Assembly: GCA_048128005.1 (NCBI GenBank)
Contig: JBEUKZ010000002.1
Span: forward strand, 1 to 64,000
Reading direction: 5' to 3'
DNA: 64,000 nt
Source: Veleropilina oligotropha
Lineage: Eukaryota
Shown here: positions 3,961 through 62,495 of the stretch, piece after piece
Numbering within the stretch: the first letter of the stretch is position 1
How the letters are laid out: each line of letters starts with the position of its first letter
Notes under the pieces: generated by a model
What the model saw: the letters and a program-made list of their open reading frames with translations, nothing else
The model's database searches: none
Told to the model about the DNA's origin: nothing
Position numbers and translations under genes: made by a program

Positions 3961-5195
3961 GTTTACAATTGTCAGAAATCGCCTGTCGTCTGCTAAATGC
4001 AAGGGCAATAATTGCGTTTGGCACAGCTACTCCTGCTGGACTGGCAGAAGAAAACACGTAATGTCCATAAAATGACGGAAATAATAAATAATATGAATTT
4101 TTCGTCAAAACAGGTAATTTGTATAAAATTAACACCAATTACGAAAAGTATTAACGCCAAATTACCTCTTGAAGCGAGACAAAATGGCGGAGGTCTCAAA
4201 TTGTTTTGAGTCCACTTGTTAACATTTATTGGACTAGGTAAATTGGTTATTGGACTCGATTTCAGTCCAATATCATCATTTATGGGCAAACGTCAAACGG
4301 CATTTCAACCAATCAGAAACGGGGATAATAAAGCGATGGATAATAATAAAATATATTCGATACCAAAGTATAATATCGTGCAATTGTTAATGAGAAAGCA
4401 TGACTGTCCTAATCTTATGCATACCCATTTTTCCGTAGTATTTTCGCCTTGCACCGCTAGTAATAATGGATACTATTTCAATAGCTATATATATCCAACA
4501 TAAGTGCGCTAATAATAGCTAAAAACATTAAAAGGAAGGCACAAATGTTTATAATTATGGACAAATGCATTAATATGTAAAAAATTGTCTGTAAAAGATA
4601 TGGAAAGTACCAAATTGGGTGAAAAGGGTAGGTGTAAGTTTATTAAATATGTGACACAATATCAACAAATATAGGAAATTGCTTTCTTGACATGATTGTG
4701 TTGACCGACATTTTCTCAAAGTGCCCATGATCTGCACGCAGCCGAATACTGGTACAACAGGTAATAATCCAGAACAAACGAAATGCTCTAAAAAAACAAT
4801 TCAAATTACAATCATATCCTCACAAAGTCATATAACAGTAATTGTTGCTACAATTATATCCACGAGAATATAAAACGAGACATTCATTAAGGATACTTAT
4901 CCAAAATATTTTGATATTTCAGATAGATAAATCAACCTTTAATACATTCCTGGGGCCTGTCACGAAAAAAAACGGTGGGCACCACCCTCTTCGAATATCA
5001 TGTAGCCAATTAAACATATTTTAGTTATATATTGAAGCATACCACTACTTTAAATATAAGTCATTTTCATGAAAATATATTATTATCGTAAAAAGAAATC
5101 ATGATAAATAAAAGAATAGTATATCATCTAGAGAAAAACAATTTAATTAACCCGACCAAAGCGGTTTTAGGAAAAATAGACAGACAACAGATCAA

Positions 5196-16944: not shown

Positions 16945-17792
16945 ATAGAGGATCGCAAATGAGTGGTAATGTAATATCACATTTATGAAACGATTTTAAC
17001 TATTTTTCTTATTTTCCGAGGCTTTGCCGAGGAAAATATGAAAATTAGTTAAACGAGTTACATAAATGTGATATTAAATTACCACGAGTGTATGGTTCTA
17101 TTTATCACATGTCGCTCTTTGGGATAGAAAACAAATTACAAACTCACGAAATTGTCTTACCGGTACGAAGAATCAGCAGTAGAGTGAAAGCGACATTATG
17201 GCGTAGTGATATGTAAACAGTTTAATGCAAAAGGACATCTTGTTGACCCATTACATACATTAGTAACAATGCCCTCTAAAAAGAGTGCGAATTTTCTTTG
17301 AAAATGAACCGATGTAACGTTATATAAAATATATGAACATATTAGAATACCAATTTTCACTAAGATTTAAAACTATCTGCCAAAAACAGTAACGCGGGAT
17401 ATATGACGCCGACCGGTTCGAATCTGTCATTAATTTTGAAGTCTGCTATCGCGGATATGCTACGTACCTGCATAAATGTGGTTGTTGCGTCTGCAATCTC
17501 GTTACCTCAAAATCAGTTTCAATAATATATACCATGTTGTTGTTTTGTGGCCGTTGCTATAAATGTTTCCACTATCGCCGACATAATGTCAACATTACAG
17601 ATATTGGCGGCAATCACGTTATAACATTATAGTAAATAATACGTATTAAAAAAAGAATTGTGCTCGACCTTTAGTGACACGAATTTCCATTGGTAGTTCT
17701 AATTTCAATCATCAAATCATCCAATCACATTTCAAGCAGGCTTTATGACACGCGTGTTGCACTATGAGAAAATGACCTAGATATGTGATAAA
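16945..17792 (+). mobile_element. Non-autonomous hairpin-ended element (putatively Crypton-dependent)
   Basis: ~155-bp imperfect hairpin centred on CGAG-GCTTTGC-CGAG (17017-17031); tttatcacat (17101-17110) / atgtgataaa (17783-17792) inverted pair. Confidence 0.6.
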
Positions 17793-19103
17793 TTAGATTA
17801 TGACCTGTGCTATTACTCACACAGCTTGCTGCTGACAATCTAATAGTTATTACTGAAATCTCTATGTCTAGATATGTTGTGTACCGCGGTGGGCGGGGTT
17901 ATCCCCCCAAGTTGATATACAACTATGGGTTCAGTTGTATACGTAAATCAGTGTAATAATTGCATTTATTACTCGGGTGTTGGAGATACAGGTGTTTAGT
18001 AAACATACCATATATTATAGGTGTTGGATACACGATTGACCCCCGTCCCTCAATTTTGATTGGACAATAGCAGTCTGCTGATGTGATGTCACGTAACTAC
18101 TTTTTTCATGAAATCTGACTTGAGGAAAATCTCAACTTAAGTATCTTTATGCAAGCGGGGCCTGAAGATTGGGATAATTGTATTGACCGCAGGTCAAAAT
18201 AGAATAACATTTAGCTTGTCGGTATAGAAATTCAAATATGTCTTAGTGTAGCGATGCGCGTGTTGTTGCTGTGGGGACATCGTAAGACAAGAGAGGTCCC
18301 GACATAATCGCAACGCCACTCCGCACCTTGTCGCACCCTGTAGCGTTATCGCTGCTACAGATGCTGGGTGTATTAATTTGACTTCACGTTGTGTTCTACA
18401 TCTTTTATCTTGACCAGTCGAATCAGTAACAATTGCAAATAGATTTATTGATCAGCATAACATCATAATAGCATGGTACATCAATTGCATATTATCACTG
18501 CCAAAGTTCTATGAGTTGATCGGACACGAGTTACCCGCTAGGCTGGGGTGACTCCAGGGAGAGTGTTCCCTATAGCCATCGGGGTTCGAACCCCGAGGCT
18601 CGGCGTATGCTGACGGTATAACTGGTCTAGGCAACTGTCCAGGAATCTCTTTTTTCTAACTGTGTCTGACTCTAGCATTTATCTAATGTTAGATCCGGCC
18701 ACGTCATCCTACTACGTGCAGTGTTGCATGCATTCCATTGTCCATATTTAGACAAAGGGTAACTGTTCCTCTAACCTAATATGGCTGTCTACAGAATAGC
18801 CTGGCAGACAGAATCACGCAACTGGCAGGGTCGTGCAAGTGCGTCATAACGCCTTTCCGCTTGCATGCGTAAACAAAGTACTTGAATTTAATATATGTGT
18901 CCTGTTTGGATTCGAGGAACTGTCATAGGTCACATCTCCTTAACCCTTTTAGGCAGTAAAATATGGACACCATTTTGTTACATTAGTATGTATTGGACAA
19001 AGGGTCTTTTACGTCACCCGGCAACGTTATAAACAGACCTGGTACTTATGCATCAACTCAAAATTTTGGTAGCAGACCTACAGTGATTGATCAGCAATTG
19101 AAC

Positions 19104-22100
19104 ATGTGCGCACTTATTCGGGTTTTGGGTCTTGTGGCTTTTGCCTGCACGTTACACAATGGTAAGTGCTGCCTAGTAATCCTCAATTCACGCAACTTAT
19201 TTTACATTTTTCTTTTTTAAAGATGCTTTAAATCAGCCACGTAAAATATAATTTAAAGCAACTCATTCTCAAACTTGTTGTATGTATTTTTGCATATAGT
19301 TATGATAATTTATTGGTTATCGTATCCATACATAAAATGTAAGATATAGTAATAGATGTTTAAAACATCGATATTGAATATTGATATTCACAGCGATCTT
19401 TCATGTCGGTTTCAGGGTGTCTCGCCCGTATCAATATATAATTTATTTGCAACATTAACAATAATTTATCTGAACATAAAGTTAAACCAATAGCATATTC
19501 TATACTTTAAAAAATATTGTATACATATATTACAATTACTATGATATTGTACCATTAAAATAATCGACTTGGGCGAAACTTCCACGGCTTTGGGAGAAAT
19601 CCGCTCGATGCGAATTTACATTGGGGCGGAACTTCCGGCTATAACGTACATGGCTTCGAATTCAAAGCGATCATATAATTACTAGCCAGGGTACCCGTCT
19701 TCGACGGGTGAGTGTCCCCACCTCATCAATAACCTAATTTCTTATCTTGAACGCCTCTAACATTCCACGAAAGATCTCCACTGAGTGATAACTATGAAAA
19801 TATGAAAATTCCCCCCCCAAAAAAAAACACCACCCCCGCCCCCCAAAAAATAAAATTTGAAAGCGCCATAACCACCGCCTTGGTACCCTTAGTTCACATG
19901 CCAAATTTGGTGGAGATCGGTCGAGCCGTTTGTAACGTTATAACTGTTATGAAAATTCCCCACCCCCCCAAAAAAAAAAACCCCGCCCCCCAAAAAAAAT
20001 TTTTGAATGCGCCATAACCACCGCCTTGGTACCCTTAGTTCACATGCCAAATTTGGTGGGATCGGTCCAGCCGTTTGGGAGCCTATAGGAGACACACACA
20101 CACAGACAGACAGACAAACTCTCCACGATCATAGTATAGATTGGAATACTTTCTGTTGCATTTTAACTTGTAAATCATCAAATGAGTAGGTGATAAATAC
20201 ACACAATACCCTATTTGTAATTTTATATTGAATATAAACTACGTAACGAAGCGGAATAAGATCCACGTGCGCACCAATACGCTCCAATAAGCATCGTTAG
20301 AGATAAAATTAATTTTAAAATCATGCGTAGCTGAATACAATATGTTTTATCATGATCGAAGAGAATGTTGTAATATAAAATATTCTTGAGACAACATTGA
20401 AAATATTTAATGTTTAATCATAACTATTTTTATTAAGTTATGAATACATGCATTCATTCATATTACTTTCATTAATGTGTTAAGTTTAATTTACTCGTAA
20501 TGAAGTATAATTATGTCAATAGAGTATTTCGCATGTTCATATTCAATGTTATACGACTGCCTGCATGCTTTGAGTATTAGCATGCACTTACCCAGCTGCA
20601 TGTACGATGCTAATGATGAATTGATGTTTAGCGACCACTATGGGGTGCCGTTGTTCTTTTTATTCCAGTTTTAGATATCAAGAATTCGAATTTGTGATAT
20701 CAAAAAATCGAATTCTTGATATCACAAATTCGAATTGTTGATATCGCAAATTCGTATTCTTGATATCACAAATTCTAACTTTTATAACGGTAACGCCGAA
20801 AAGTGATTGATCCCTTGTTCGTTTACCTTCGATAAGAGAGATAATCGGATTGGAAATGGCGGCATGGTGTCGCGTGATATGTCTGTTATAGACAGGTTTG
20901 TGGACAACCACCGGGCGAACAGTAGAGAGGGGAGAAGTCATTTAATTCAAAATATGACATCGTATTTCTTGATATCAAGAAATCGAATTCCTGATAGGCA
21001 AGAAATCGAAATCTTGATATCAAGAATTAGATTTTTTATATCAATAAATATTTATTGATATCAATACTTCGAATTTGTGATATCAAGAATTAGATTTCTT
21101 GATATCATGAAATCTAATTCTTGATATCTAAAACTGGAATAAAAAGAACAACGGATCCCCATAGACCACGCCAACAGCCTTTCAGTCATAAATCGGGTAA
21201 ATCAACTTTGGATGATCAAATGGATTATTGCTGTGTGCAATGGAGGCCGATATCATTGGAAATATACCCACACCCCCGAGGATTTGACCCATGACCTTCC
21301 GTTAGTAGACCATCACAATCATGGTCCCCAGCAGCAGGGGGGGTGAGTGTACTTTTTAGAATGGGAAAATACGGCTCCCAGCACCATTTCAGAACCGAGC
21401 TGGTATTACTGTGGGGATGAATGCACCTTTTCCGACCCAACGTAGACTATATAAAGCCCCCGGGGACGGCCCACTACCCGAGCCGGCCCGGGCTCCTCAG
21501 TTATGCGAGCAGTAGCAGGGGGGGTGATTGGACTTTTTAGAATGGCAAAATAGCGGCCCGGCGAAGGCTACAGGACATCACTGAGGGCCCGCCAGCGTTT
21601 GATTTCGTACAACTCCCTTTCTACCGTCTTTGGTCTTCTTCTTATATATCGCTTGTTCACCATCGTCGAGTACAACGATCAAAACGTTATAGCCCCGGTT
21701 TAAGAGGTTTTTAACGCGCCTGAAGCTCCGTTCGCTGTACAGCGTAGGAATGTCTTCCTGCGGCATGTTGATTTCAAGTATAACTACACAGCGTCTAACA
21801 TGCCGATATAGTAGTATGTAGTAAGAGCCCGTAGGGACGGCCCACAACCCTCGCCGGCACGGGCTCTCTTTTAGACATACCCATCGGACGGGTATATCCA
21901 ATGCAAAGGATACGATGTGGGGAACGGACACCTGTCAATGGCTCACCATCAGCTCCACGGAGCTATGTGGTAAGAGATGTCTGAACACGTATTGCAAAGT
22001 CCACCTGGCTCGGCTACGGCGAAATGGCTGGGGCACAAAGCCCTGCATCAAATGCGGCAAAGGCGTCTTTAACCGGTTTACGTTGTGCCGGGGTTGTGGG

Positions 22101-25100
22101 TATCGGAATGAAGACGTTAAGGACTGGCAACGAAAGAAAAGGGCCTTCCAGAGAGAGTTTTGCCGCATGGCTGCAATCTACCACACGTAATTTCCTATTA
22201 GAGAAATGATTTGGCGTAGTGTATACCCCCCCAGCAACATGGATGACCTGCGCAATCTAGCGAAAGATTATGGGATTCCCGCTCGGTCGAAGCTCAAGAA
22301 GCACGACCTCGTCAGGGCAATCGCCAGGGTCCGTGCTGCGGAGTTTCGGAGCAGACTCGAGCGGGCGATGAAAACGGGAAGGTTCCCCTCCATACGTGGA
22401 GATGTGGAGAACCCCCACAAAAGAGGCCGACGTGCTCGCGAGTTGCGGCAGATTAAGGACGAGGTCGACGCCGCCCTGCAGGCTCGTAAATACGAATCCC
22501 AAGCTGAGAAAAATCCCAGGATTCGACTGAAGCCACTTCGCGCCATCACGGATCGAATCGTCAAGCGGTCTCGGAAAGAGACCCTTGCCCATGCTATTGC
22601 TCGGAAGGGGCCCGATCTTCTCATCTCCAAAACGCCCCGGACAGCCCAGGACTACCAGAAGGATCTTCTAGGGCAATTTACCACACCCGAGGGACAACGA
22701 TTCATCGACCTGGATGACCAGGTCCCTCCCCCAGTAAGGCTCCCAGCAAAAGAGCCATGGGTGGAACTCTTGAGCGACGCCAAAGACGAGTTTGAGGTCG
22801 ATGGCGCCGCGGCGGCTTTCTCCACATGGAGGGTAGAAGTGGACATTAAGATCGCACCAGCCCTGGATGCCCGTATGACAGATGCAAGGGCGGCACAGCT
22901 CCTCACAGCCCTTCCAAAGGGCGAGTATGTCCTTAGAATAAAGTTCTTGCGTGAGTGGAGTGAGGGCGACTGGGTGGTCGAAGACAAGTTTGACCCGGTG
23001 AAAGCTGCGAGAAAGAAGGGCCAGGGTGTCTTTGAGATCTCTCAGGACACTAAGCCGGGTGCTATCACCGGGGTCGACAAGGTCTACTACGAGAATGCCT
23101 ACCCGGTCACTGCAGTCGTCTACGGCGTCTATCCTCTCAGAGAACCAAACCCCGCCAACCTGGTTCCGATGAAGAACGGCGACCTCAACTGCGTTGCCCA
23201 ACGAGTGGTTGAGCACTTCGAAGGTGCCCTTAGAGGACACGGACTCACCCCGACAAGGCGGCAGAAAATACTGGAGTGGGAAGAGCGAGTCCATGTAACA
23301 GGCGCCACTGTGGATGATATATCCATCCTCGAGAAGATACTGAAGCGGGCGATTGTCTTGAGAGACATCGCCGGCGAGGACGTCTTCAACAGCGGAAAAT
23401 ACCAGGCCAGTATGTGGAAGTCCATAGAACTCATCTGTCACAACGGCCACGCATGGTCGAAGGACCTACACTTTCCGCAGTCTCGCGAGGTCCACCTGTA
23501 TGAGGGCGATGTCTGGGAAGCTATTCGACAAGCCACACAGAACGAGCCATTGGCTGTCTGGCTCCTAGGCGGTACAGACCGACAGCTCAACGTGAACCAG
23601 TTCGTGCTTCAGGACGGCCGCACGTACAGGACAAAAGATGATCACGAGAGACTCCAAGAAGCCTGTACAGCGCTGGGGAATGAGTCCCTAGCCGATCGAG
23701 CCTTTGGCGTGAACCATGCAGCTAGCATTATGGCCAAAGAGACCAACGGCTGGAAACCGACCCCAGCGGGCCTGCTCGATGACATCCAGAAGGCCTGTGT
23801 AGAGCATGGCCACGGCGGCCTGTGGAATTCCATGAATTACGACACGGGCGATGTCTGCTGCATCGATATGAAATCCTGCTACCCTGCAAGCTTTCTGGGG
23901 AAGGGCGAGGCTAAGCCCTATTTCGAAAGATTCGGACACCCACTCCACAGCATGACCCGGGTCGCAATTAACGGTCCTCTACCCCAAGATATCGGGACCG
24001 GGTTTGCTGAGGTCGTGGAATGGGAGTTCGCACAAGACATCCACCCCGTCATTGTAGCATGGTTCGGAAAGCACTTTGCAGAGAATGGATGGGCACCAAC
24101 CCCGCTGCTCGCATTCCTCGTAGAATCTGGACTCCTAAAAAGCCTCAAGATCCGAGAATCCATTATCGCGTTCAAAAACCAGACCGATGTCTGGCTTCCG
24201 GAGAATCGTGACCAGGGCTGCAGCATTATCGGCAAATTCACCCAAGGCGCCAAAGCCGATGGCAAAAGATTGACTCGTAGACTGGTGACCGACCAGGGTG
24301 AGCTCGACTTCCTCGTAAGAGACACCCGCCAAAGCGGCACCCTGGTTGGCGCTCCTCAGAGATGCCCCCTCGGTCACATCCTCACGTACTATGATGGCTC
24401 CCAGCCTCAGTACGCCCACCTGAGGGCATCCATGTTGGCCTATGCACACATAAACCTCTTGAGCATGCTGAAGCGTTTCAGTGCAGCAGAAGCCGTCCGG
24501 GTAGCCACGGACAGCATCTACCTCAAGAAGGCCTCGTTGGAGAAGCTCGACGATGTCACGGTGTACGTTGCCCCCAGACTCTGCGGCTGTGGCGAGAAAT
24601 CGTGCATCTCATGTCTGATCGCGGAGCCGTACCTTCCGCCAGTAGCACCAGCCCAGTGGCGTGACAAGGGCGAACAGCTGTATATGCCACAGGAACATGC
24701 CGCATACCTACCCAAGCCAGAGTATTGTTGTGCCGCCAATTCCAGCCAGCCGAGCACCGCGCCATGCTACAATGACACACTGACCCACCATCGCCTGAGT
24801 TACCTCAATGGTGGAGGGGGCTGTGGCAAGACTACGAGAGCGATCGAGCTCTTTCGGGCAAGGAATCCCGTCGTGTTCACACCAACCCACCGCCTCGCTA
24901 AAGAGATGCGGACCAGAGGCGTCAAAGCCCAGACCTACCACAGCTTCTTCCGATGGAGCGGCCAGAACGACTGGACGCCTGATCGCATGGGTCAGAAGTT
25001 CATCCCGCGCGTCATTATCTGGGACGAGGTCTGTACTGTTCCCCGGCACATCCTAGAGATGTTCTTGGACTGGCTGGGCCGCCACGAAGTGCAGGTTATC

Positions 25101-28100
25101 TGCTGTGGTGATCAAGGCCAGCCACCACCGATTACGGGCGAGATGCCGCACGATTGGCTGCGAAAGACCGCGGACTACTATGAAGAGATCGAAGTAGACT
25201 ACAGGGCGAAAGACGACCCTGCCCTCCAAGCCCTGAAAAGACGTATCCGTCTCCAGCCCGACAAAGTCCAGTGCGACGAGATGCGACGGACCCTCCCCAG
25301 CTGCCTCGGATGGGACCGGTTCGTCAACACCTGGAAGCCAGGCGACCTAATCCTCACAAGCCGTCAGAAGGTCCGCGAACGGGCTCAAGAGCTGTTGCTC
25401 CAGAGGCACAAGGAGCACTTCCCAGACTCCATGGTGCCTATCCTGTACCACCCCAGGGACAGCAGAAAACAGAACATCATGGTAACCATTCCGGGCACCA
25501 GCGACAGAGAGGAGCTAATTCTGAACGACGTCGTCGAGGTCACCATTGAGGCCGCTGAGCGGGCTATCCTGACCCCGGATTGGCGCCTGGGCTATGCTCT
25601 CACCATCCATTCGAGCCAGGGTCTTACGATTCACGACCCACAGAAAGTCTGGATCATCGACGACTACCTTCAGTGGAGTAATCTCGCCTACCTAGCCGTG
25701 TCCCGGGTGGAGCTGCTGCGTCAGCTCGAACGGGTAACCTGTCCACCGGATGAGGGTTCTGAGGACAGGCCCCCCCAAGCGCCCCAAACCGAGCAACAGC
25801 TCCGAAAGACCATCCAGAAAAAGCTTGTGGCGTACAAACGCCAGGACCAGGCAACGGGACTCCCGGGGTTTAACCTCAAGGTCGACGACATCCTGCGGCT
25901 CAGAGAGGCCCAAAACAACCGCTGCGCAGCATGCAACATAGAGCTGCTCTGGGAATATTCCCCGAAGGACACACAGCAGTTCAGTGTCGACCGTGTGGAC
26001 AACAGCAGGGGCCACACCCGCGACAACGTGCGCTTAACGTGTCTGGAATGTAACCGGAAACGAGGATTTGCGGTTGTTAACGCCTGAGAACCGGTGGCAG
26101 CTGGGTATCACGAGGCACCACGAGAAGTTCCTCACGAACGAAGCCACGCGGTGGTCCATCCAGCAAGTAGTAGAGCACAGGCTCGTCAGGCTTAGTGACG
26201 GAGCGTCCAAGCCTGTAAACTTTTAGAGACCACACCGGGTCAGTAGCACGGCGATGACCCCCCTCCAGCTCACCATCGTAGTAAAGGTAGCGAACATCTA
26301 CGTCAGAGGGGAGTTTCTGTTCCTTCCCCTGTCGGCCTGGAACAGTGGCGCCTGGCTTTTGGGCAACGCGAGGTGCCTTGATGGCGTCCTTGGGCTTTTT
26401 ACCGGTCAGCCTGGTCACTTCCCCATTCAAGGCCGCAACTACAGCTGCTAACCGGGCGACCCACTCAGTTGACCTTTGACCCTCTTTCGCAGACTCTGCA
26501 AACCGCATCTCTGTTGCATACTGGTGCCCGAAGAGCCGCTCAGCGAGCGTCCGGTTGAAGCGCTCCACAATGCCCTGATCGCGATGGATATCCACACGGC
26601 CACGCCTAACCTCGACGTTATTCTTTGCCAGCAGCTGGGAAACCGCGCCCATAAACTCTCGCCCTGGATCGACTTGAAGCAGTTTCGGCCAGCCAAGAGG
26701 ACTCCGCCTGTAGATTCGGGCTAGTGCTTCAGCAACCCCTTTGGCCTCTTTTGTGACCAGAGGCTCAGCCTCTTTAAAGCGACTGGCCACATCAACCACA
26801 GTCAAAGCGTACTTATAGGTCTTGTGTCTGACCTTGTCATGGGGGAGAAACAGGAGGTCGGCTTGGTGAACCTCGTTTGGCGTTACGACGTCGAATTTTG
26901 GTCTTGGAATCCGCCGTGGCGCAGGTAAATAGATCTGCCATATAGCCTGCCTCTTAAGCCATGTCCGGGCCTCCACTTCAGACGCCTTGGCAGCGTCAGC
27001 TAGTTTCTTTATCGCGGCAATGCCTTTCCAGTAGCCCTTAGGGCTGTAGTACATCCTCGCAAGCTTACTATCCATCAGCAATGTATTCCAGTAAACTGAT
27101 CAGTCTCCAACAGGCTTCAGCTTCCGGAGCCGGTCGCTGCGCAGTCGTCGCCCGTAGGTTGGTCGGGCCCGAGAGCACCAGGACCGCGAACCGCACCATA
27201 GTCTTTTCGTCGCGGCGCCAGCAGTCGAGTAACGTAGTACTATAGCCGACCGCAAGCATAGCGCAGTACAGCTCTTCTGGGAGCCCCATTACTATACATG
27301 CCAACGAAAAAAATGTCCACTGGAAATAATTAGGCGAGCTTGTAGGCGACCAACCCGGTCGCAGCCATCCCCAGGATGATGAAGGTGATCTCACGTCCCT
27401 TCTGGCCATCGCTCGGTGTGTAGTAGTCAGACAGGGCGGGCTCAGGGCCACCCCCCAGGCCGGGGTCAAGGTTCTTGCCGGTGATCAATGCATACTCACG
27501 GATCGCGGCGTCAACATCCCGGAATGTGCCAACGGCATGACCCTGGCGGCGAAGTTCAACGTTCAGCCAGTCGAGACGCTCTGCCCTCTGTTGTGACCAT
27601 TTAGTCTGAGCAGCGTTGAGCTGTTCTACAGCAATGTCGTGGCGTTTACGCTCCGCATCGACACCGGAGCTGCGTAGCTTCGAGAAGAGGAAGTTGGAGC
27701 CGCTGAAGGCGAGGGCGTTGACGAGAGCGCCCCCAACCAGCATCGCAATGGAAGCCATTGAAATGCTGCGATTATCTAGCAAGGTCCCACTACTTCAATA
27801 TATCGGCCGGAATGATGCCTTGCTTGATCAGCATGTCTTTCGTCGCCATGGCGAGCGCTACGTCGAGGACGACCATCCCGACATCGTAGCCCGTGAAGTC
27901 CAGTTTGGGGCTCGCTCCCTTGAATACCATCTTTGTCAGGCGTGCGTAGCCTATGGCGAGGCCTGACACTATAGCGGCGTGGTATACAGCGTTGCCGAGC
28001 ATCTTTCCATCAGTGATTGGGGTAGTCATAACTGTTGATTAGTACCGTTTGCGACTATTGCATATGAAAAGGGTTCTGCTTCTTCAATTCGATAGTGGGG

Positions 28101-46713: not shown

Positions 46714-47020
46714 GTAAAAATACGAAACAGGTACTAGACTTTTGACGGTGGATCACAAGGTAGTGGAAATGACGCTAGTTGAAAATAAATGACCTGTTTT
46801 ATGTATGAAATTTAAAGCTGCATTGCCCTTAATCAGTGAAAAATGCTTTTAACTTTAAACCATAGGCAGCAAACATTTTTTTGCCAGTTAGACAAATTTA
46901 GAAACTTTGCCATTTAAAAATTTTGTAATTTTCCAAAAAAATCGAAGGACGTTGATTCCTGGAGCGCTTACGAATTAAAAGTAAAAATTAATATTATCAG
47001 AAAAGCGAGTTTTTTTTCAG

Positions 47021-49541
47021 AACGAGCTATCACAGGAGTGATCACGTGCCCCCACGAAAGCATTTGACCCAGGAACAAGCTTTTGCATACACACATGAAG
47101 TTTCATGTCCCTCAGTCAAATATTATGGGAGATATCATTTGGAGCGGAAGGGTATTTTAGACTGAATGCGGTCAAGTGTGAAATGTAGGTCGCAGTGACC
47201 TACTTTCTGTACGCGACATACCCTTCAGTTATGATGCATACACATATGAAGTTTCATGTCCCTCGGTCAAATAGTTTAGGAGATATGGAGCGAAAGGGAA
47301 TTTTGGACCAAATGTGGTCAAGCGTGAAAAGTAGGTCGCGGTGACCTACTTTTGGTACGCGACACACCTTTTGATTATGACACATAAACACATCAAGTTA
47401 CGTGTTGCTCGTTCAAATAGTATAGACGATATAGACCGGAAGGGAATTTTGGACCAAATGCGGTCAAGTCCGAAAAGAAGGTGCAGTGACCTACTTTTGG
47501 TACGCGACATACCTTTGGGTTATGATGCATACACACAGCCAGTTTCATGTCCCTCGGTCAAATAGTATGGGAGATATGGAGCGGAATGGCATTTTGGATT
47601 AAGTGCAGTCAAGCATGAAAAGTAGGTCGTGGTGACCAATTTTCGGTACGCGACACACCTTGGGGTTAAGACACATTCAATTCAATCTTTATTGACAGTC
47701 TTTACACAACATGTTTGTAGACTTATAATATATATATAAATACATAATGGCGGAATATTTTAGAGTCTCAATGAAGAGGAACAAACAAATATTATGGAAA
47801 CAACATGATCAACAGATACTAGTTGCATAAGCTATAATACAGGAAAGGATCGATGCTTAATATCCTGTATATTTCCAATCATTAAGTACAAAGCAGGTCA
47901 TGTCCATATTATCGCGGGGGGGGGGGGGAGCCCGGTCTCTCGGGGAAACCCACCCTCTCCGACCAGTTACGAACAACTGTGAATCATAGCTTGAACAAAT
48001 AATAACGTCTCGACCGGGTTCGAACCCACTACTTTTATTGTTAGAGGAATCAAGCCAGTGATTTTTCGGTGACCGAGACCTCACAACTGTCGAAGCGCCC
48101 ATGACATAATACAGTGTAAGAAAAAATACACAATGCATACAATAATTAAACTAATAAAACATCTCTTAATTTAAAGGCATGAAACAAATATTTTTTCAGT
48201 TTATTTAGGAGCGACTTTGAATGAATTGTCATTATTGAGATAAATTTATTTATGGTTGACCAATGTGTATAGTGTTTGGGCAGGAAACGCTTTCTAAGAT
48301 CATGATATGTCATGATAAGTAAAAAGTAAAAAATGGTATTCATTTTCTATAACAGATAAAGTACAAAGTTTACAGAGTCTATGATTTCTATCTACATTTT
48401 CGTATCGGCCCGTTTCTATGAATAAATTGACAAACTCTATATCCAATATCTTGTATGAAGGTCAAATACAATTCACATGTTAAATTAATATTTATTTTAC
48501 TATATATTTCTAATTTGGATGACTGTGAAAAATGAAATTTGTACAATGCTGAAAATATTCGTCTTTTATTCTTTGCTACAGAGCATTAAATATTGGAATT
48601 GGTCGATCCTGATTTAACCAAATATCATGCCTACCAAGAGAGCATAACAAAGTTTTAACATCACTAGCCCAGTTTAGCCCATTATAATTAATACCATTAT
48701 CACAGTCATTTTTAAGCATAACATATATTTTACATAGTAGATTATCTCTGTCTTTTAAAATTTTAATCCAGTATTTTAGTATAATTTATTTTCTCGTAAT
48801 GGCCATTGGAAAACGCCCAAGCTCACTTAGTACGCCTTCAGTTGGAGTGGATTTTTTAACCTTTAATGTACGCTTGCAAAATCGTAAATGCACTCTTTCG
48901 ACTTCTGCTGCTTTATGGAATCCCCATATTTCAGCACCGTAATTTCATACAGTCGAAACTAAGGTATCATAAAGATAACATTGTTTGCCAACTGGTAATA
49001 CGGTATCTTGCATAATTTAAAATGACGTAAATAGTGCCCTTTGTCCCTGTGATGAGATGCGTTTCTTTGTCTTGTTCCAACGTCCGTTTTTATATAAATC
49101 TAACCCTAAGTATACAAAGTACACATGCACACATCAAGTTTCGTGTCCCTCGTTCATATAGTATGGGAGATATGGAGCGGAAGGGAATTTTGGATTAAGT
49201 GCGGTCAAGCATGAAAAGTAGGTCGTGGTGACCTACTTTGGGTTATGACGCATGTACACATCAAGTTCGTGTCCCTCGGTCAAATAGTGTCCAAGATATG
49301 GAGAAGAAGGGAATTTTGGATTAAGTGCAGTCAAGCATGAAAAGTAGGTCGTGGTGACCTACTTTCGGTACGCGACACACCTTTGGGTTATGACACATGC
49401 ACACATCAAGTTTCTTGTCCCTCGATCAAATAGTGTCCAAGATATGGAGCGGAAGGGAATTTGCAACAGACCGACAGACGGACGGACAAGCTGACTCCTA
49501 TATTCCCCCCACCTAAACTTCCTTTGTGGGGGCATAATAAA
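47021..49541 (+). mobile_element. Helentron/HINE-like non-autonomous element with ~140-bp tandem repeats, interrupted by a LINE fragment
   Basis: Units aagtttcatgtccctcggtcaaatagtatgggagatatggagcggaaggg...gtgacctacttt at 47085-47675 and 49120-49460; (gacg/gaca)n then ccccc...ggggg hairpin and A-rich end. Confidence 0.65.
47676..49120 (-). mobile_element. 3' fragment of a decayed LINE containing a SINE (47850-48100)
   Basis: Minus-strand aataaagattgaattgaa tail; residual pol C-terminus (YHDLRKRFLPKHY). Confidence 0.55.
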
Positions 49542-50766
49542 ACAGCAAACAATTGATATTCTTCCATTTTGAAACCTCAACATGTTTTATAACATCCACA
49601 TATATGTCATTAAGGCATTGCTGGGCATTATGCGATAATTACGGGCAATACATCTTTAATACGTCTTGCACGATTTCCATTATAATTATCTATGGTATTC
49701 TCGTTATTATAGCATCATTGGTCGATGTTTGACCGTTTGTTCTTACAATCAAATATTAGAGTCAAGTTATTTTGTCTCAATATTTTTGTCACCATATCTG
49801 ATTTTTCTAGATACAAATGACATCGAATGTATTAGGTTGCATAGACGATCTGATTCATACACTGATCTACAGGAAGAACTTGGGATCTTAAAATAATGTG
49901 GTGCAATATGGTTAGTCATTTGATATTGACAATGCGAACATAATATTTCTAGATCATTTAGGATCTATATTTTTAGTACAGGAACTTGATATTGAATAAC
50001 AGTTTCTTCATGAAGCCATATCACATGAAGCCATATCACATGAGGGTGGAATGATGCTTAATGTCCTGCATATTTACAACATCGAGGTTCAAGGCAGTAT
50101 ATGTCCGTGTTATCGCAGGAGGAAACCCCGGTCGCCCGGGTAAACCCGCCCTCTTCGGCCAGTCGCGGACAACTGTGATTCATAACTTGAACAAATGTCA
50201 ATGCCTCAGCCAGGTATTGAACCCACAACTGTTCGTATTAGCGGAATCAAGCCAGTGAATTTAGAGTGGACACTCTTACCCACTGCGCTGCCGAAGCGGC
50301 CCATATCACATGAAGCCATATCACATGAAGCCATATCACATGCTTAAAAAATTCCTTTATTTAATACTGCCATTCCGAAATTCAGTGTAAATATATTTTC
50401 GAATAGAAATGGAAAGTTGGACGCATCGGTGTACGTTTTTATACGACTTGTATCATAGTCTACTTATTGGTCACTTTGATCAACGTATCACATAGGCCGC
50501 TCCCGTATCCTTAATTAACATGAGTGCGTTCAAATCTTGGTTGAGGCAATTACCAATCACAGTTGTCCGTAACTGGCCGGAGAGGACGATAATACGGACA
50601 TGTCCAGCATGAACCCGAAGGTTGTAAATATACAGGATATTAAGCATCGATCCAACACAATACAATTCAAGGTACCACAAAAGTTTTGAAATCAATTTCG
50701 ATACATACCTATTACTATATACTATATATAGGTTCCTGTTGCTTCAATTTGATATTTGATTGATTA

Positions 50767-52003
50767 ATAGAATCAAGCACCACATTGAGTTCCAGATAGA
50801 GAAATATCAGTCGAGGGTGGGATGATGCAACAAATCACAACCGAGGCGTTAGCCGAGGTTGGGATGTTGCACCATCACACCCGAGACTGATATTTCTCTA
50901 TCTGGAACTCAAATGTGGGACTTGATTATTTTTCTCGCATCTCAAAAAGCTTGAAAAAGTTATTTTGATATGTCTTTACCTTGCGTATTCAAATAACCCA
51001 ATCACTCACCAGTAGTTCTTCCGACGCAATCGAATATAGTTACGTACTTTTGGAATACATATTTATTCAATTCTTTAGTATTATTAAATAATAATAATTG
51101 TAAAATATTTAAATTCATAGCATAGGGTAATAAAAAGCTCGAACTATGACTATGCATGAGGTGATGTTACTTTTTAAGGCTATTTCGATATTTGTTTACC
51201 TTGCATACAGTACGAGTATTACAAAAGCCCAATCACTCACCAGATGTCAGCTGTTCTTCTGACGCAATCAAATATAGTTCCGTACTTATGGAATAAATAT
51301 TTACTCAATTTCATTAGTAACTTTAAAATATTAATAATTGAAAAAGTAGACAAAACGCTAAATATTTAAAATCATAACGTAGATTAAAAACGCTAGAACT
51401 ATTGAACTGACAAGAAGTGACGTCACTTTTCTGAGGCAATGTTGTCTGTTTATAATTTGTTGCTGTCGATCTGCGTGTTTTCCAGAAATTGTTGTCATAA
51501 TTAAGTACATTCTGACAGAAGTGTTTGTGAAGCGTCGATCGCTCTGTAATTATGTTCGTATTTGCTGTCATACGCTTCATGGTGCATTTAAATTTGTTTA
51601 CATCAAGCGGACAATTTGCAAACGAAGGACGTGTTTTGCCGGTATTTTCACGGAATTGTGTCAGCTATGTAGAATGAATTTTCAGCGTTGGAGTAGCTAT
51701 AGTCTGCAGGTCTAAACTTAAAGCCATGGTAAGTTTTGTAGATAGTTATGAGACATCGGTGTGGTGTTTCGGGTGTAGCGTACATGCGTGGTTGAGTGCG
51801 ATATAGATATTATAGAGAGATGTTAGCCTCAGTACGTGGGGTTTTTATGTTTCGATCCGCCATTTTTTTTTCCAAACATTGCAGACGCCGTGCGTAGGAA
51901 TACAAAGTGTGCTAGACAGCATTTGCGTATGTATAAAAAGTGTGCTAGATATAATGTTCCAGCACCGGTAAAAAATGGGATCAGTCTATCTCAGGTGCGA
52001 GAA
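50767..52003 (+). mobile_element. Non-autonomous hairpin-ended element (putatively Crypton-dependent)
   Basis: ~160-bp hairpin centred on CGAG-GCGTTAGC-CGAG (50842-50857); ttctcgcatct (50932-50942) / aggtgcgagaa (51993-52003). Confidence 0.6.
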
Positions 52004-52196
52004 TGATATTTCTGTATAGCGCTGTTTTTATTTATTTATAATATTTATATAATCTGCCATAACCTAATTTTATTAAAGATGCTTAACGAAGATTGAATAA
52101 ATTATATATTTTTTCAAGTGTTTCGTTATTTCGTGTTCGGCAATATTAACTCCAAACTATCTATCGTTATCTCTTCAGGTATGTAGATGTTTGTAC

Positions 52197-54209
52197 GGTT
52201 ATCTCCCAATTGTCAGACGTGCCAATAGTCAGACAGGTAATTATCACACCTTGTAATTAAGGCAAGTATGCAGACTTACCTAATGATAAAATGGAATAAC
52301 CTTATGTCGCATGTCGGAGAGTAATAGTGAGCCGAATTCTCCAAAAATAATTCATAACTCTTAACTGTATGTATATGAGCAGTCTTCACTGCTTGCTTAA
52401 ACCCACTATTCATCTGACCGCTGTGTCCAGTCAACTTATTGATTGGTGGCGATACATATCACAACTCACAAAAGTAAATCCTATGATTACTGTTAACTGC
52501 ATCTACATATGAAAAAAAATCACTAAGTGAATCATTCCATTTGGAGTAAATTGTATCACCCACATGTAGTCTTATTTTATTTATCATATACTATGGCACA
52601 CCTAGTTAAAGTAAACTATGTTACTTCGCAAAGAGGGACCCCGAAAGTTTTGCTTGATGGATACTTGTACAACCGGAATAAGGTCCGGCAGTCGTGTGTC
52701 CATTGGAGATGTATAATGAAGACTTGCACTGGCAAATACACCACTATCAACGATTTCGCACGAAACACCACCGAACATAACCATCCACCAGAAGCTGAGG
52801 ACAAACTTACATTTGTAAGCAATCTGCGTAAACGTGCCAGAGGAAACTACGCATATGCATTATCTGTACAACGACGAGATTACGCGACAGGATGGGGCTT
52901 TAATTCCCCAACTTCCATCATTTCCGAGTACGAGTAGTGCTTTGGACAGACATCGACGTAAAAACATTCCATCGCTTCCAAAGAGTAGAGCAGAAGTGAA
53001 TCTTGAAGGCAGTTGGACCGAAACATCTGATAGTAGACCATTTCTTCTCTTCAACGATGGCGATGATAAGAAAGTTTTAGCGCTTTCCACAACTGAACAA
53101 CTTGAAAATCTACAAGCTGCAGATGTTTTATACATGGATGGAACATTTTCGTCATGCCCGGAGCTATGGGACCAAGTTTATATCATTCATGCAAGACACC
53201 AATATATTACGTATCCACTCGTTTATGCGCTATTACCAGATCGACAATCTACCACCTACGCCAGACTGTTTAGCTTGTTAAAGACAATCGTTTAGCAGCG
53301 ATTAAATCGACCCCTTGCTCCATCAAAAGTGCAAACAGATTTCGAACTGGCTTCAATTCGTGCTATAGAGAGAGAATTCCCGGAAACTGAAGTTAAAGGA
53401 TACTTCTTCCATTACTGCCAGGCAATTTGGAGGAAAACGCAGGACTTAGGACTAGCTGCTCGTTACAAAGATTATCCTGACGTACGAAGATGGATTCGAC
53501 GCGCTGGACTACCATTACTTCCACAGAACGATGTGCAAGACGCCTGTATGGAAGCAATGGACACTACTCCCGATGTTCCTTGCGTTGAGGAGTTTAACGA
53601 TTATATGGTGATGGATTGGGTGGACTATGACGCACGATTCCATCTGTCATTGTGGAATCACTATGAAACACAGTGACCAAGAACTAATAACAACAAGGGA
53701 TTGAAGTAAGTGAAAAAGCCAAACTCGCCCAGATTAACGTTGGTGCAGTGCCTCCAAATAGAAAAAGAGTATGGAAGGAAATCGAACAGAGAATCATTCG
53801 TTGATATCGCAACTGGACGAAGGTATGAAGACGGCAATTCAATTTTTAGATGCCATCGGGCAACTGTTAAAATTAAGTTAAAATTCGGTTTCATTGAACA
53901 TTATTAAATTAAGTGTTATTGTATTTGATCAAGATAACTTTTACTGTTGCTTATGACATTTTATTGTCTTATATGATGTTAGTGTTATTACCTTACTATA
54001 TATACACGTATCAGTAACTTATGTTGTAAATGTACATATTCGATACAATAAACATGGTATACTATATTTTATGTTTGACTACGTTTATTAATTGGATCAT
54101 ACCATTTAATTAATGGGTAAGGAGCATGGGATTATGTGTGCAGCCAACCTTTAAATCTGTAGGATTAACCTGTCTGAGATATGGCATGTCTGACAAATGG
54201 GAGGTTACC
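52197..54209 (+). mobile_element. Mutator-like (MULE) DNA transposon, decayed
   Basis: TIRs ggttatctcccaattgtcagac / gtctgacaaatgggaggttacc; 8-bp TSD gtttgtac (52189-52196, 54210-54217). Confidence 0.85.
52593..53700 (+). pseudogene. FLYWCH + MULE transposase, frameshift ~52840 and internal stops
   Basis: GYLY..HWRC...HNH; YMDGTF, PLVYALLP, TDFE, FFHYCQAIWRK. Confidence 0.85.
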
Positions 54210-54505
54210 GTTTGTACTCGTTGCATTAGTTCAGAGCTTTCATTATAGCGTTTGCTGCTAAAGATCCATTGACGACTGCGATATGCTTATGATATAGGTG
54301 TAACAAAAGTTGAAGACTGTACCGTTCGTTGCTTTAGTTCTGACATTTCTAATGTCACGGGAATATATGACCATACATATAAAAACAATCGAATCATGCG
54401 TCACTGCTGGAACTAATAGGTCATAATAATTATATCATGGCATTTCCTGATTTCATTTCATTATAACGTATCCACGTAATGCTATTCCGAGATAATGGAT
54501 AATTT

Positions 54506-54951
54506 TTTATTATATGCCAGTCGTTTTCTGACGCCTATTCTCGCGCAATTTTCCGAGACCCTGTATCACGGACACAGCTGATATCGATTCAGAAAACGTC
54601 TCCTGCTTATATATTCACAGGAAAACGTCTCCTGCTTATATATTCAAATGGCTGACAAATCGTACGAACTACTTCCAATATAGTCCTATACTATTTCAAC
54701 CTCCCTTACAGGTTCGTGACTAAAATTATCATAATCTTTCGATTCAATTTGATAAGAAACTTGTTGTGGCATATAATAAAAATGTTATCAGTTAGTGTGT
54801 GGATTCTAGCACATCGGAAACCTCTCGTGACGTCTTAGTTTTTGCGGCGGATAAATCGCTCGAACTTCGTTCTCGCGATTAATCCGCTGCAAAAACTAAG
54901 ACGACACTCGAGGTTTACGATGTGCCAGAATCGACACAATACTGATAACAT
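54506..54951 (-). mobile_element. Non-autonomous hairpin-ended element
   Basis: Perfect 14-bp IR tttattatatgcca (54506-54519) / tggcatataataaa (54767-54780), then a ~170-bp hairpin centred on ctcg-aacttcgtt-ctcg (54859-54875). Confidence 0.65.
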
Positions 54952-55369
54952 CATTATATTGCGCATTTTCATGTACCAATGCTTGCTCAAAGCGCTACAT
55001 CATTATTATTCCCTGGTTACCGACCTGTTCTGTACGAGATTCTATTTCAACTTTCTCTGACAGTATTACAGCCGAGCTGCCATTTATTGGCGCTTCAGAC
55101 TAGTCATACTGGCAATTTTCATCACTGCCAACAAGGTACTCACTCAGATCGGCTGGGTGAAATCAAGGAAATTAGCTGGGATCTGGGATTGAACCCAAAC
55201 CTCTCGATGGGAGGCCAGTGCATCTACCACGGTTGAAATATTCTAGTCGCTTTCGTATTACGATGCGAAAAATGAGGTACTACTGCTATTAAACCCTCGT
55301 TGGCATCAAAATAGCAAACTGAAGACGGGGAAATAAGCAAAGACAATATATTGGTACAGAATGCAACAC

Positions 55370-55855
55370 ATTACTTTCATATCGCGAAATCCGCGACGTC
55401 TGATTGGTCAAAATGACATCACGTGGAGTTTGGTAAATACTCGTCTCAAACCCGACGTTTTCGTATCAAACTACACGTGGTCTGCTAGACGTCATTCGCT
55501 TCTGCGGGAGACAATAAAATGTTTTCAAGTATTTCTTTGAGATTCAATCATATACATCAATGTATATGACTAAACTATTCCTCAGCTTTTCAAATATCCA
55601 AGTTATTTTGCGCTTAGAATAACCCGATAGGTGCAATTTTACATGACGTTATTCATTGCTTAGTCATTGTTCAGCATTGACAGGAAGCTTTTTTTAAATA
55701 AAATAAAAATAAAAATGTTATCCTGTAGCGTCTCTTTGGATACTACGTTTATCGTGTTGGCTATGAAAATATCACACTCGACTTCGTCTCGTGTGATATT
55801 TTCAGAGCTCACAGGATAAACGTACGTCTCAAATTCGCCGCCCCAGGATAACGTT
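55370..55855 (-). mobile_element. Non-autonomous hairpin-ended element
   Basis: Hairpin 55715-55854 centred on ctcg-acttcgt-ctcg (55777-55791); left boundary uncertain. Confidence 0.5.
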
Positions 55856-56107
55856 CAATAGATAGACTTGGTAGCCCCATGCAAAATTGATCGCAGTCCA
55901 TGACAGTAATAACACCCAAATACGTGTTTCATCTCAAGAGTTTACGAAGCGTACGGCATACAACTCACAGAGATTGGAGATGTGGGAGTAGTAATTTGTC
56001 GTCTTTCTTCAGAATTATTAATTAATGTTGGACTCATTTTTAGCTCGCCTGTTCGAAGAACAGTAGAGCTATTTCTATGATCAGCTCGTATGGCGTCGGC
56101 GTTTCCT

Positions 56108-61007: not shown

Positions 61008-61060
61008 CAGCTACCTGGCTAGCCCTAGCATCTACTTAGCAGCTACTTAGCTAGCTAGGC

Positions 61061-62213: not shown

Positions 62214-62225
62214 TAGCAGTACAAC

Positions 62226-62465: not shown

Positions 62466-62495
62466 TGGGACCTGCTAGATAATCGCAGCACTTCA

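Follow-up and report, generated by a model that had tools for sequence, protein, structure and literature searches.

Within a 64-kb window, the whole stretch of DNA analysed here, four stretches of 140-170 nt differ in sequence along most of their length and yet carry one and the same apical motif, which raises the question of what kind of element is built in this way. All four fold as long hairpins on either strand (DNA minimum free energy -38 to -71 kcal/mol), and self-BLAST found no second copy of any of them within the window. The CGAG-bearing strand is the plus strand in hp1 (16941..17105, core 16945-17103) and hp2 (50766..50930), and the minus strand in hp3 (54782..54951) and hp4 (55715..55854). 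Each apex is comprised of a CGAG, a Watson-Crick stem of 2-3 bp (3-4 bp by energy fold), a loop of 3-4 nt and a second CGAG, namely CGAG-GC-TTT-GC-CGAG in hp1 (17017-17031, +), CGAG-GC-GTTA-GC-CGAG in hp2 (50842-50857, +), CGAG-AAC-GAA-GTT-CGAG in hp3 (54859-54875, -) and CGAG-AC-GAA-GT-CGAG in hp4 (55777-55791, -), with TTT, GTTA, GAA and GAA as the respective loops. The apical pair is a direct repeat, placing CGAG opposite CGAG once the strand is folded. An earlier note on this DNA had described four long hairpins with this apex, CGAGs that are direct rather than inverted and oppose each other on one strand, and a C-GAA-G triloop in two apices; the folds bear this out, with the apex and its opposed CGAGs seen in the pairing of all four hairpins and the triloop in hp3 and hp4.

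The apex motif is specific to CGAG. CGAG-N3-14-CGAG occurs 36 times in the window against 8.6 expected. Requiring an inner stem of 2 bp or more, a loop no longer than 6 nt and pairing at 7 or more of the 10 outer positions leaves exactly four of these matches. When all 48 direct-repeat 4-mers of the form x-yz-x' were scanned for the apex architecture, four sites were returned, every one of them CGAG, and a control of 186,203 nt from 43 related metagenome loci contained neither such apex sites nor long hairpins. Lower CGAG blocks sit in three stems, on the same strand each time. Those that the earlier note had placed in hp2 (50812-50815/50882-50885, +) and hp3 (54824-54827/54907-54910, -) are both present in the pairing; CGAT/CGAG (16991-16994/17054-17057) and TGAG/CGAG (16960-16963/17085-17088) can be read from the plus strand of hp1, and hp4 has a single, degenerate TGAG/CCAA block (CGAG strand, -). 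CGAG/CGAG on one strand makes up six of the eight 2x2 internal loops in the folds. Purine-purine mismatches are biased to this strand, in line with the strand specificity claimed earlier: with the strand-defining apex blocks left out of the count, 11 of 13 mismatch events on the CGAG strand are G.A rather than C.T (p = 0.011). The CGAG strand also forms the more stable fold in four of four hairpins with RNA parameters, which score CGAG/CGAG as stabilising (-0.7 vs +1.4 kcal/mol for CTCG/CTCG), and in three of four with generic DNA parameters, whereas its wobbles show no enrichment of G.T (3 G.T pairs vs 2 single A.C mismatches). In DNA, CGAG/CGAG is described as a structurally characterised 'CGAG block' of sheared G.A pairs (PMC10085684), and C-GAA-G as a hyperstable mini-hairpin core found at single-strand initiation sites (PMC13037366).

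The arms themselves cannot be aligned (in global alignment, z = 1.2 between hp1 and hp2, 3.2 between hp3 and hp4, and no higher than 2.0 in any other pair), in agreement with the claim that arm sequences differ, but the elements are not unrelated, as they had been called. Common stem ends and apex sort them into two classes: hp1 and hp2 share the stem ends AATAGA and the apex CCGAGGC-loop-GCCGAGG, and hp3 and hp4 share AATAAAAATGTTATC and their apex. Nor is the hairpin the outermost 5' feature on the CGAG strand, as supposed earlier, since a conserved box, TGC-N2-3-CAATTT(T)G, is found 14-27 nt further 5' of hp1, hp2 and hp4. A search of 128 kb of strand gave three matches to the box, where 0.6 would be expected, and all three are those beside these hairpins, on the same side and the same strand: CATTGGCTTGCAAACAATTTTG at 16906..16927 (+), 15 nt 5' of hp1; TGCTTCAATTTG at 50740..50751 (+), 14 nt 5' of hp2; and CATGGACTGCGATCAATTTTG at 55882..55902 (-), 27 nt 5' of hp4. 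By hand count on the alignment, the hp1 and hp4 boxes are identical at 18 of 22 positions. Sequence comparison adds a variant beside hp3, CATGAAAATGCGCAATATAAT at 54953..54973 (-); this variant doubles as a third, imperfect copy of the repeat at 54504/54767 described below. Directly 3' of the hairpin on the CGAG strand a T-run is present in three of four cases (background 0.038 per position, p = 2e-4), at the 3' foot of hp2 (50929-50933, +) and, seen on the plus strand as an A-run before the hairpin, at hp3 (54778-54782) and hp4 (55711-55715). The length from box to hairpin end is nearly constant in all four, at about 180-190 nt. With stem ends and apex shared inside each of the two classes, the four form a family defined by cis-signals rather than a set of unrelated elements. 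The bodies adjoining the hairpins have no sequence in common, and the module alone could therefore be the whole element.

Terminal repeats are best developed in the element that carries hp3, e3 (54504-54973, +, given in Helitron2/HINE orientation). It opens with a T-run (TTTTT) and a 16-nt repeat (54504-54519, +), contains an exact 26-nt direct repeat of period 29 (54592-54617/54621-54646), carries the inverted 16-nt copy immediately upstream of hp3 (54767-54782) and ends in a 22-nt tail after the hairpin. Read from the sequence, the 54504-54519 repeat has no complement within the next ~60 nt, so a 5' hairpin is absent, and no flanking duplication is visible. A possible body of the hp1 element, e1 (17100..17793, +), bounded by an 11-nt inverted pair (17100-17110/17783-17793), is statistically marginal, its score of 11 equalling the shuffle maximum of 11, and holds no ORF of at least 90 aa. 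An 11-mer at hp2 (50752-50762) is inverted at 51265-51275, inside an internal duplication, and once more at 49746; the 11-mer itself is situated on the hairpin's box side. On the body side, neither hp2 nor hp4 has inverted repeats above shuffles. Of the repeats compared with shuffles, those of e1 and e3 and the body sides of hp2 and hp4, only the e3 pair exceeds them (score 16 vs a maximum of 13 in 100), and the 10-14-bp far-end inverted copies reported for three elements are not confirmed. No target duplication of 2-10 bp was seen at any tried boundary, at hairpin feet or module edges, where the AT flanks of hp1 and hp3 are uninformative because AT is self-complementary. A conserved short direct repeat that could serve as a crossover site was not found at the module edges.

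G-A blocks shared on one strand, together with the box and the T-run, point to mobile elements that are recognised as folded single strands. The part of the earlier interpretation that sees conservation in a folded single strand, and not in the sequence of the arms, is supported: arms vary from hairpin to hairpin, but pairing, apex, strand and the position of the blocks do not. Structure, strand bias, box, T-run and e3 layout are established in the window. We tentatively favour, at somewhat less than even confidence, the reading that the hairpins are a single-strand-specific end module of non-autonomous rolling-circle transposons of Helitron2/Helentron type. The four hairpins would then be the cis-acting module conserved in a single group of small mobile elements that are non-autonomous. 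On the CGAG strand its order is a box (CATKG..TGC-N2-3-CAATTTTG), a spacer of 5-27 nt, an imperfect palindrome of 140-170 nt and a T-run, with one to three CGAG/CGAG sheared G.A blocks and a hyperstable tri- or tetraloop apex in the palindrome. Such a module would function once a particular one of its strands is single-stranded and folded, and would signal the end of an HUH-type rolling-circle transposon of the Helitron2/Helentron (HLE2) kind; in CTCG-strand orientation, the right asymmetric terminal repeat would be followed by the palindrome as 3' stem-loop, and the box would be the 3' tail. The hairpin may mark termination or cleavage, and perhaps also a strand-specific start for second-strand synthesis, comparable to the ~160-nt ssoA of rolling-circle plasmids. 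We infer mobility of the elements, although each hairpin is single-copy in the window, and likewise a single-stranded intermediate and an enzyme.

The layout described for HLE2 and HINE elements, with a T-rich 5' end, a terminal repeat inverted upstream of the stem-loop, an internal direct repeat and no duplication (PMC3627910, PMC11417382, PMC4067079, PMC7492417), is matched by e3, which likewise has a short 5' terminal repeat with its inverted copy immediately upstream of the 3' stem-loop, a T-rich boundary, an internal tandem repeat and no visible target duplication. Helentron subTIRs are GAA/GAAA-loop mini-hairpins, e.g. CGTCGAAGACG (supplement S7, PMC4067079), and hairpin-preserving compensatory changes are described for Helitron2 (PMC3627910); both traits, cis-signals that include GAA-loop mini-hairpins and hairpins maintained through compensatory substitution, are points of likeness to HLE2 (HINEs, DINE-1), as is a short tail after the palindrome, here a conserved 20-50 nt in four of four. 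These elements are described as inserting between T and T (or after TTTT) without target-site duplication, and as having asymmetric terminal inverted repeats of 8-16 nt, one copy at the 5' terminus and the other directly before the 3' hairpin. Such a repeat is significant in one of our four elements only (16 nt in e3), stands at the shuffle maximum in e1 (11 nt) and is absent from the hp2 and hp4 elements, and e3 lacks the described 5' hairpin. Proportions differ as well, the palindrome being 140-170 nt here and 5-22 bp in the HLE2/HINE accounts drawn on, where the stem-loop lies ~8-35 bp and the 3' repeat ~20-60 bp from the 3' end; with so much longer a stem-loop, the 3' repeat lies ~190 nt from the end here. 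Nor do these accounts describe CGAG mismatch blocks. Also weighing against the Helitron2/Helentron reading, no Helitron_like_N, PIF1 or other Rep/helicase gene or fragment was found among 78 of the 138 window ORFs of at least 90 aa scanned against Pfam, which cover every ORF outside Polinton-like copies, and the T-run after the hairpin would serve equally well as a Pol III terminator.

That last property belongs to a quite improbable alternative, in which the hairpins are small structured RNA genes, or retroposed copies of them, transcribed from the CGAG strand, with the box as 5' sequence or promoter, the G.A pairs as protein sites and the T-run as terminator. The T-run directly after three of four hairpins, the constant box-to-end length (181-191 nt), the stabilising CGAG/CGAG and the preference of RNA parameters for the CGAG strand in all four are consistent with it, as is the AAUUUUG of the box, which may resemble an Sm site. 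A near-perfect 60-80-bp RNA duplex, however, would be expected to be cut by Dicer instead of persisting as a stable RNA, the CGAG strand shows no enrichment of G.T wobbles, and the window has no Rfam match at gathering score, no tRNA gene and no tRNA-like promoter. Near-palindromic elements of 140-170 bp are most often MITEs, and it is unlikely, though somewhat less so, that ours are MITEs too, palindromic ones belonging to a cut-and-paste (DDE) transposon, whose arms would be long TIRs and whose CGAGs would be bound as duplex DNA by a transposase or a protein of the host. Between hp2 and hp3 there is a decayed FLYWCH/MULE-type transposase, AT dinucleotides (uninformative, as noted) stand beside hp1 and hp3, and the starts of the apical CGAGs are separated by 11-13 bp, about one helical turn, which would put both on one face of a duplex. 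Yet the arms of hp2 and hp3, on either side of the MULE remnant, are unrelated, and the 2-10-bp target duplication is missing at every tried boundary. Moreover, the apex is the most conserved part here, while the centre is the least conserved part of deletion-derived MITEs; the box is on one side only and the mismatch spectrum is strand-biased. Binding sites in inverted repeats should themselves be inverted, but these CGAGs are direct at mirror positions, so that only folding brings them opposite one another. As a DNA rather than RNA stability motif (PMC13037366), the C-GAA-G triloop likewise tells against the RNA genes.

The earlier note had favoured attC-like folded single-strand recombination sites for a Crypton tyrosine recombinase, which we now consider very unlikely. 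Integron attC sites work by strand-specific structural marks on a hairpin of variable sequence, which these hairpins also show; the window contains one Crypton, and target duplications, which Cryptons do not make, are not seen. This sole Crypton, however, consisting of remnants of a tyrosine recombinase gene (76..4026, -; Phage_integrase, DUF3504 and a weak QRICH1 match), is 12.9 kb from the nearest hairpin, and self-BLAST found no sequence common to window positions 1-5000 and any of the four elements, a comparison of ends that is partial because the copy runs off the window edge. Nor does this copy carry a CGAG hairpin near its in-window end. The Crypton recombinase as enzyme is the part of the earlier interpretation that is not supported, as the copy neither lies next to the elements nor has a sequence or a hairpin in common with them. 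In animals, Cryptons and the non-autonomous elements derived from them are described as having no terminal repeats, direct or inverted (PMC3212892), and the derivatives, although they too lack target duplications, have both ends in common with an autonomous Crypton over several hundred bp, which is not seen here. The Helitron2-type layout of e3 and module edges without a conserved crossover repeat argue in the same direction. Least probable of all is that the shared motif reflects chance, or ancestry alone without selected function. There are only four copies in one 64-kb window, and their two classes amount to at most two to three independent apex observations, but CGAG occupies all four sites among 48 motif types, same-strand CGAG/CGAG forms six of eight 2x2 internal loops, and blocks, box and T-run persist in arms diverged beyond alignment.

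Less probable than a Helitron2/Helentron end, although a possibility of some weight, is a eukaryotic mobile module of a hitherto undescribed kind that is recognised purely as a folded single strand. It would be a unit of ~190 nt whose identity resides in the box and in sheared G.A 'CGAG blocks' at set positions of a hairpin of free sequence, comparable in eukaryotes to attC, REPIN or sso elements. Its enzyme, be it an HUH nuclease, a tyrosine recombinase or a host factor, would recognise the geometry of the mismatches and not the sequence. In attC sites, IS200/IS605 ends and REPIN/RAYT systems, a folded single strand of highly variable sequence is read by structure, and the strand is set by unpaired or mismatched bases. 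The likeness to our hairpins lies in this mode of recognition, but those systems are prokaryotic, are served by integron integrase or Y1 HUH transposases, and carry extrahelical bases or a flanking tetranucleotide as marks instead of tandem sheared G.A. The ssoA is described as a large imperfect hairpin of ~160 nt that works on one strand and in one orientation only and has small conserved islands (PMC5703833). Its size, strand specificity and conserved islands in variable sequence may be compared with ours as a functional analogy only, as it is bacterial, primed by RNA polymerase and without sequence similarity. The closest matches to the marks themselves are oligonucleotide motifs of promoters or replication origins, not parts of dispersed repeats: the CGAG block of the AUTS2 promoter has the same C-G, sheared G.A, sheared A.G and G-C pairs as the blocks described here, and the d(GCGAAGC) mini-hairpin has the same C-GAA-G triloop.

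The earlier note's claim of four CGAG-apex hairpins is borne out: hp1 (16941–17105, plus strand), hp2 (50766–50930, plus), hp3 (54782–54951, minus) and hp4 (55715–55854, minus), oriented by the CGAG-bearing strand, each fold as a single long hairpin from either strand, both by energy folding and in the drawn pairing. Every apex is comprised of CGAG, a 2–3-bp Watson-Crick stem (3–4 bp by energy fold), a loop and a second CGAG. The loop is TTT in hp1 (apex 17017–17031, plus strand) and GTTA in hp2 (50842–50857, plus), while the two GAA triloops that had been reported are those of hp3 (54859–54875, minus) and hp4 (55777–55791, minus). As had also been described, the apex CGAGs are direct rather than inverted repeats in all four hairpins, so that in the fold they oppose one another as C-G, G.A, A.G and G-C, here termed a block. 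The further blocks claimed for the lower stems, at 50812/50882 and 54824/54907, are both present. In addition, hp1 carries two degenerate blocks (CGAT/CGAG and TGAG/CGAG) and hp4 a half-block (TGAG/CCAA), and six of the eight 2x2 internal loops across the four folds are CGAG/CGAG, always on the strand of the apex block.

Our evidence base consists of the window with its four copies, metagenome contigs that are distant relatives (186 kb, as a control), and published papers. The window (64 kb, 43% G+C, no N) holds 36 matches to CGAG-N3-14-CGAG against 8.6 expected, an excess that is largely a G+C-rich coding effect. When an architecture filter is imposed that demands an inner stem of ≥2 bp, a loop no longer than 6 nt and seven or more of 10 outer pairs, four of the 36 pass, and these are exactly hp1–hp4. 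A motif-blind scan of the window with the 48 direct-repeat 4-mers that give a closed 2x2 mismatch in the apex architecture likewise returns four sites, all of them CGAG. The same scan returns zero sites in the 43 control loci (186,203 nt), which are mostly coding metagenome contigs carrying relatives of a large Polinton-like ORF and serve solely as a negative control; long hairpins, CGAG-apex hairpins and the box described below were not found in these loci either. At equal stringency, only two other direct-repeat blocks occur in the window, AAAT in a palindromic satellite and GACC at 3277/3345, and long hairpins free of the motif are also present (59072–59314, 44972–45043 and the 20.6–21.2-kb satellite). 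The core observation is sound and more specific than chance, and it is richer than reported, extending to a box, a T-run, two classes and strand-biased mismatches; that the shared motif is a coincidence is barely credible.

The description of the elements as unrelated holds for the hairpin arms, which cannot be aligned (z = 1.2 for hp1–hp2, 3.2 for hp3–hp4 and at most 2.0 for the remaining pairs), but not for the stem ends and apices, which are common within hp1/hp2 and within hp3/hp4. In hp1 and hp2 the common stem foot is AATAGA and the common apex CCGAGGC-loop-GCCGAGG; hp3 and hp4 have the same 15-nt junction, AATAAAAATGTTATC, present solely at these two places, as well as an apex of the form CGAG-A(A)CGAAG(T)T-CGAG. 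Nor is the hairpin the 5' end of the CGAG strand, as had been proposed, since a conserved box lies 14–27 nt further 5' on that strand. Searching both strands of the window for its pattern, TGC-N2-3-CAATTT(T)G, yields exactly three occurrences against 0.6 expected; they accompany hp1, hp2 and hp4, always on the same side and the same strand. The hp1 box, CATTGGCTTGCAAACAATTTTG, and the hp4 box, CATGGACTGCGATCAATTTTG, agree at 18 of 22 positions by manual count on the alignment, and hp3 has the variant TGCGCAATAT. The box motif was defined from the tested sequences themselves, making its significance post hoc, and after rough correction this is probably below 1e-3. A T-run directly follows the hairpin on the 3' side in hp2, hp3 and hp4 (p = 2e-4 for three of four, background 0.038 per position), and the coordinates place the box TGC 181–191 nt from the far hairpin foot in all four elements. 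Alignment of the neighbouring bodies and flanks reveals nothing common beyond stem ends, apex, box, hairpin and T-run, and a search of each body for a second box copy, direct or inverted, gives nothing above shuffles.

Far-end inverted copies had been claimed for three elements, but among those set against shuffles only the copy in e3, the putative element around hp3 (54504–54973), stands out, its 16-mer at 54504–54519/54767–54782 scoring 16 against a maximum of 13 in 100 shuffles. The score of the hp1 11-mer inverted pair equals its shuffle maximum. A candidate 11-mer pair of hp2 (50752–50762/51265–51275) flanks the hairpin on the side of the box, has an additional inverted copy at 49746, and has its far-end copy inside an internal duplication of ~231 bp; body-side inverted repeats of hp2 and hp4 do not rise above shuffles. 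The direct duplication itself (50985–51105/51216–51345, period ~231 bp, 82% identity) is located a short way downstream of hp2 and is reminiscent of the repeats found centrally in HINE-type elements.

Duplex DNA gives a palindrome no strand identity, yet these hairpins have one. With the orientation-defining apex blocks set aside, 11 of 13 mismatch events are purine-purine on the CGAG strand (p = 0.011), namely six single G.A mismatches, four further blocks and one half-block, versus two C.T events; among single mismatches alone, 6 of 8 are G.A (p = 0.14). DNA energy tables favour the CGAG strand in three of four hairpins and rate the 2x2 loops nearly alike (1.3 vs 1.7 kcal/mol), and RNA tables, which include tandem G.A data, favour it in all four (-0.7 vs +1.4 per block). 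CGAG opposite CGAG in DNA is described from experiment as a stable 'CGAG block' of two cross-strand-stacked sheared G.A pairs (PMC10085684), and C-GAA-G is described as the core of an extraordinarily stable DNA mini-hairpin that phage and plasmid origins carry at their single-strand initiation sites (PMC13037366). The strand-biased mismatches thus support the earlier suggestion that structure is selected, and we infer that the selected form is one folded single strand, more likely of DNA than of RNA. The CGAG strand shows no enrichment of G.T wobbles (three G.T pairs vs two single A.C mismatches), and Rfam and tRNA scans of the window detect no known RNA family and no tRNA; we consider a small-RNA gene quite unlikely.

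No target duplication is seen at any boundary tried, so families without duplications remain, and membership of the hairpins in a DDE MITE family is rather unlikely. Helitron2/Helentron rolling-circle transposons (HLE2) and their non-autonomous derivatives, HINE/DINE-1, are described as having terminal repeats that are short and asymmetric, the 3' copy directly preceding a 3' stem-loop, together with a T at the 5' end, T-T insertion and no duplication, central tandem repeats, and hairpins conserved through compensatory changes (PMC3627910, PMC11417382, PMC4067079, PMC7492417). The layout of e3 largely follows this plan: on the CTCG strand it reads TTTTT with an 11-nt core, ~250 nt, the inverted core with AAAAA, the 170-nt palindrome and a 22-nt tail. 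Direct comparison finds a 26-nt exact repeat of period 29 in the ~250-nt interior; Tandem Repeats Finder reports nothing at score 40 over 50700–56000. Published Helentron subTIRs are themselves GAA- or GAAA-loop mini-hairpins (PMC4067079, supplement S7), and the box and apex strings are absent from ~20,000 characters of supplement S8 of that paper. Against this likeness, the differences are large: published HLE2 palindromes measure 5–22 bp, far shorter than hp1–hp4, and the HLE2 descriptions, in the text available, mention no CGAG mismatch blocks. The terminal repeat is seen in one of our four elements, e3 has no 5' hairpin, and no HLE2 Rep/helicase is seen among the 78 of 138 window ORFs scanned. 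The ssoA of rolling-circle plasmids (~160 nt) offers a functional analogue of suitable size; it is described as acting on a single strand and in a single orientation only, and as folding into a large, primed structure (PMC5703833). Our tentative identification, the most likely one though short of an even chance, is a single-strand-specific end module belonging to non-autonomous rolling-circle elements of an HLE2-like type; a more doubtful possibility is that the module is of a new kind, recognised by its structure.

The earlier note had instead proposed that the hairpins may be substrates of a Crypton tyrosine recombinase like that left as remnants at 76–4026 (minus strand). Neither membership nor use finds support: the Crypton copy lies 12.9 kb from the nearest hairpin, has no sequence in common with the four elements and has no CGAG hairpin near its in-window end, and animal Cryptons and their non-autonomous derivatives are reported to have no terminal repeats of any kind (PMC3212892). 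We regard this proposal as very unlikely, while attC remains apt as an analogy for the mode of working. Two other arrangements were rejected, namely hp2 with hp3/hp4 as the two ends of one 4–5-kb element around a FLYWCH/MULE remnant (arms unrelated, no flanking duplication), and hp1 as a piece of the adjacent LINE's 5' end (the other three hairpins have no neighbouring LINE).

If the rolling-circle reading is true, these would be, in the literature searched, the first eukaryotic transposon end signals whose strand is marked by a defined non-Watson-Crick motif, and would open a direct, sequence-level route to the single-stranded intermediate assumed for rolling-circle transposons. No description of G.A or CGAG motifs in transposon hairpins was found, which is weak evidence of novelty, as most subscription journals and Repbase lie outside coverage. 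The combination of CGAG, short stem-loop and CGAG within a long palindrome, plus the box, would be a simple, searchable signature for annotating a class of hairpin repeats otherwise lumped with MITEs by ordinary repeat finders. The hairpins would also be a natural system in which to study proteins that read sheared G.A geometry.

A graveyard of transposons, the window holds several non-LTR elements besides the Crypton remnants, and no CGAG hairpin is recurrently carried by or abutting its Crypton, non-LTR, Polinton-like or FLYWCH/MULE elements. Three copies of a Polinton/Maverick-like element occur (21330–36454 and 59562–64000): 22245–27338 is 95% identical to inverted 35795–30699, and 26311–30685 is 81–88% identical to inverted 59562–64000. 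The element encodes a 1298-aa ORF (22191–26087) with an SF1 helicase (Pfam AAA_30/AAA_19) and, by eye in the translation, family-B polymerase-like motifs and a C-terminal HNH-like motif, an rve integrase (26077–27099, minus) and an A32-type packaging ATPase (29249–29887, minus). Its nearest Atlas clusters are Preplasmiviricota-like; the large ORF has 43 relatives in metagenome contigs (39–79% identity) and none among viral contigs. Separated by ~30 bp from the end of the third copy, a nested fold-back (58713–59530) contains the near-perfect 243-nt palindrome 59072–59314 (112-nt arms, 97% complementary), which has no CGAG blocks and was used as a control hairpin, enclosed by a second inverted pair (58916–59023/59423–59530, 99%). 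Just left of the Polinton-like element, the palindromic satellite 20638–21164 is built of GATATCAAGAATTCGAAT-like units with many overlapping inverted and direct repeats. A fold-back insertion of ~400 bp (1714–2112, arms 1729–1821/1991–2093) that has no CGAG motif interrupts the Crypton coding remnants. The decayed FLYWCH zinc-finger and MULE-like transposase pseudogene (52527–53673, one in-frame stop at 53293–53295), whose nearest Atlas clusters are from rotifers, arthropods and molluscs, lies between the oppositely oriented hp2 and hp3, for which no evidence was found as its ends. A different hairpin family without CGAG blocks is formed by the G+C-rich 72-nt palindrome 44972–45043 and a related copy 4.5 kb away (40447–40503, 86–88% identity), and tandem arrays occupy 37897–38333 (period ~55 bp) and 47084–47676 and 49121–49462 (period ~150 bp).
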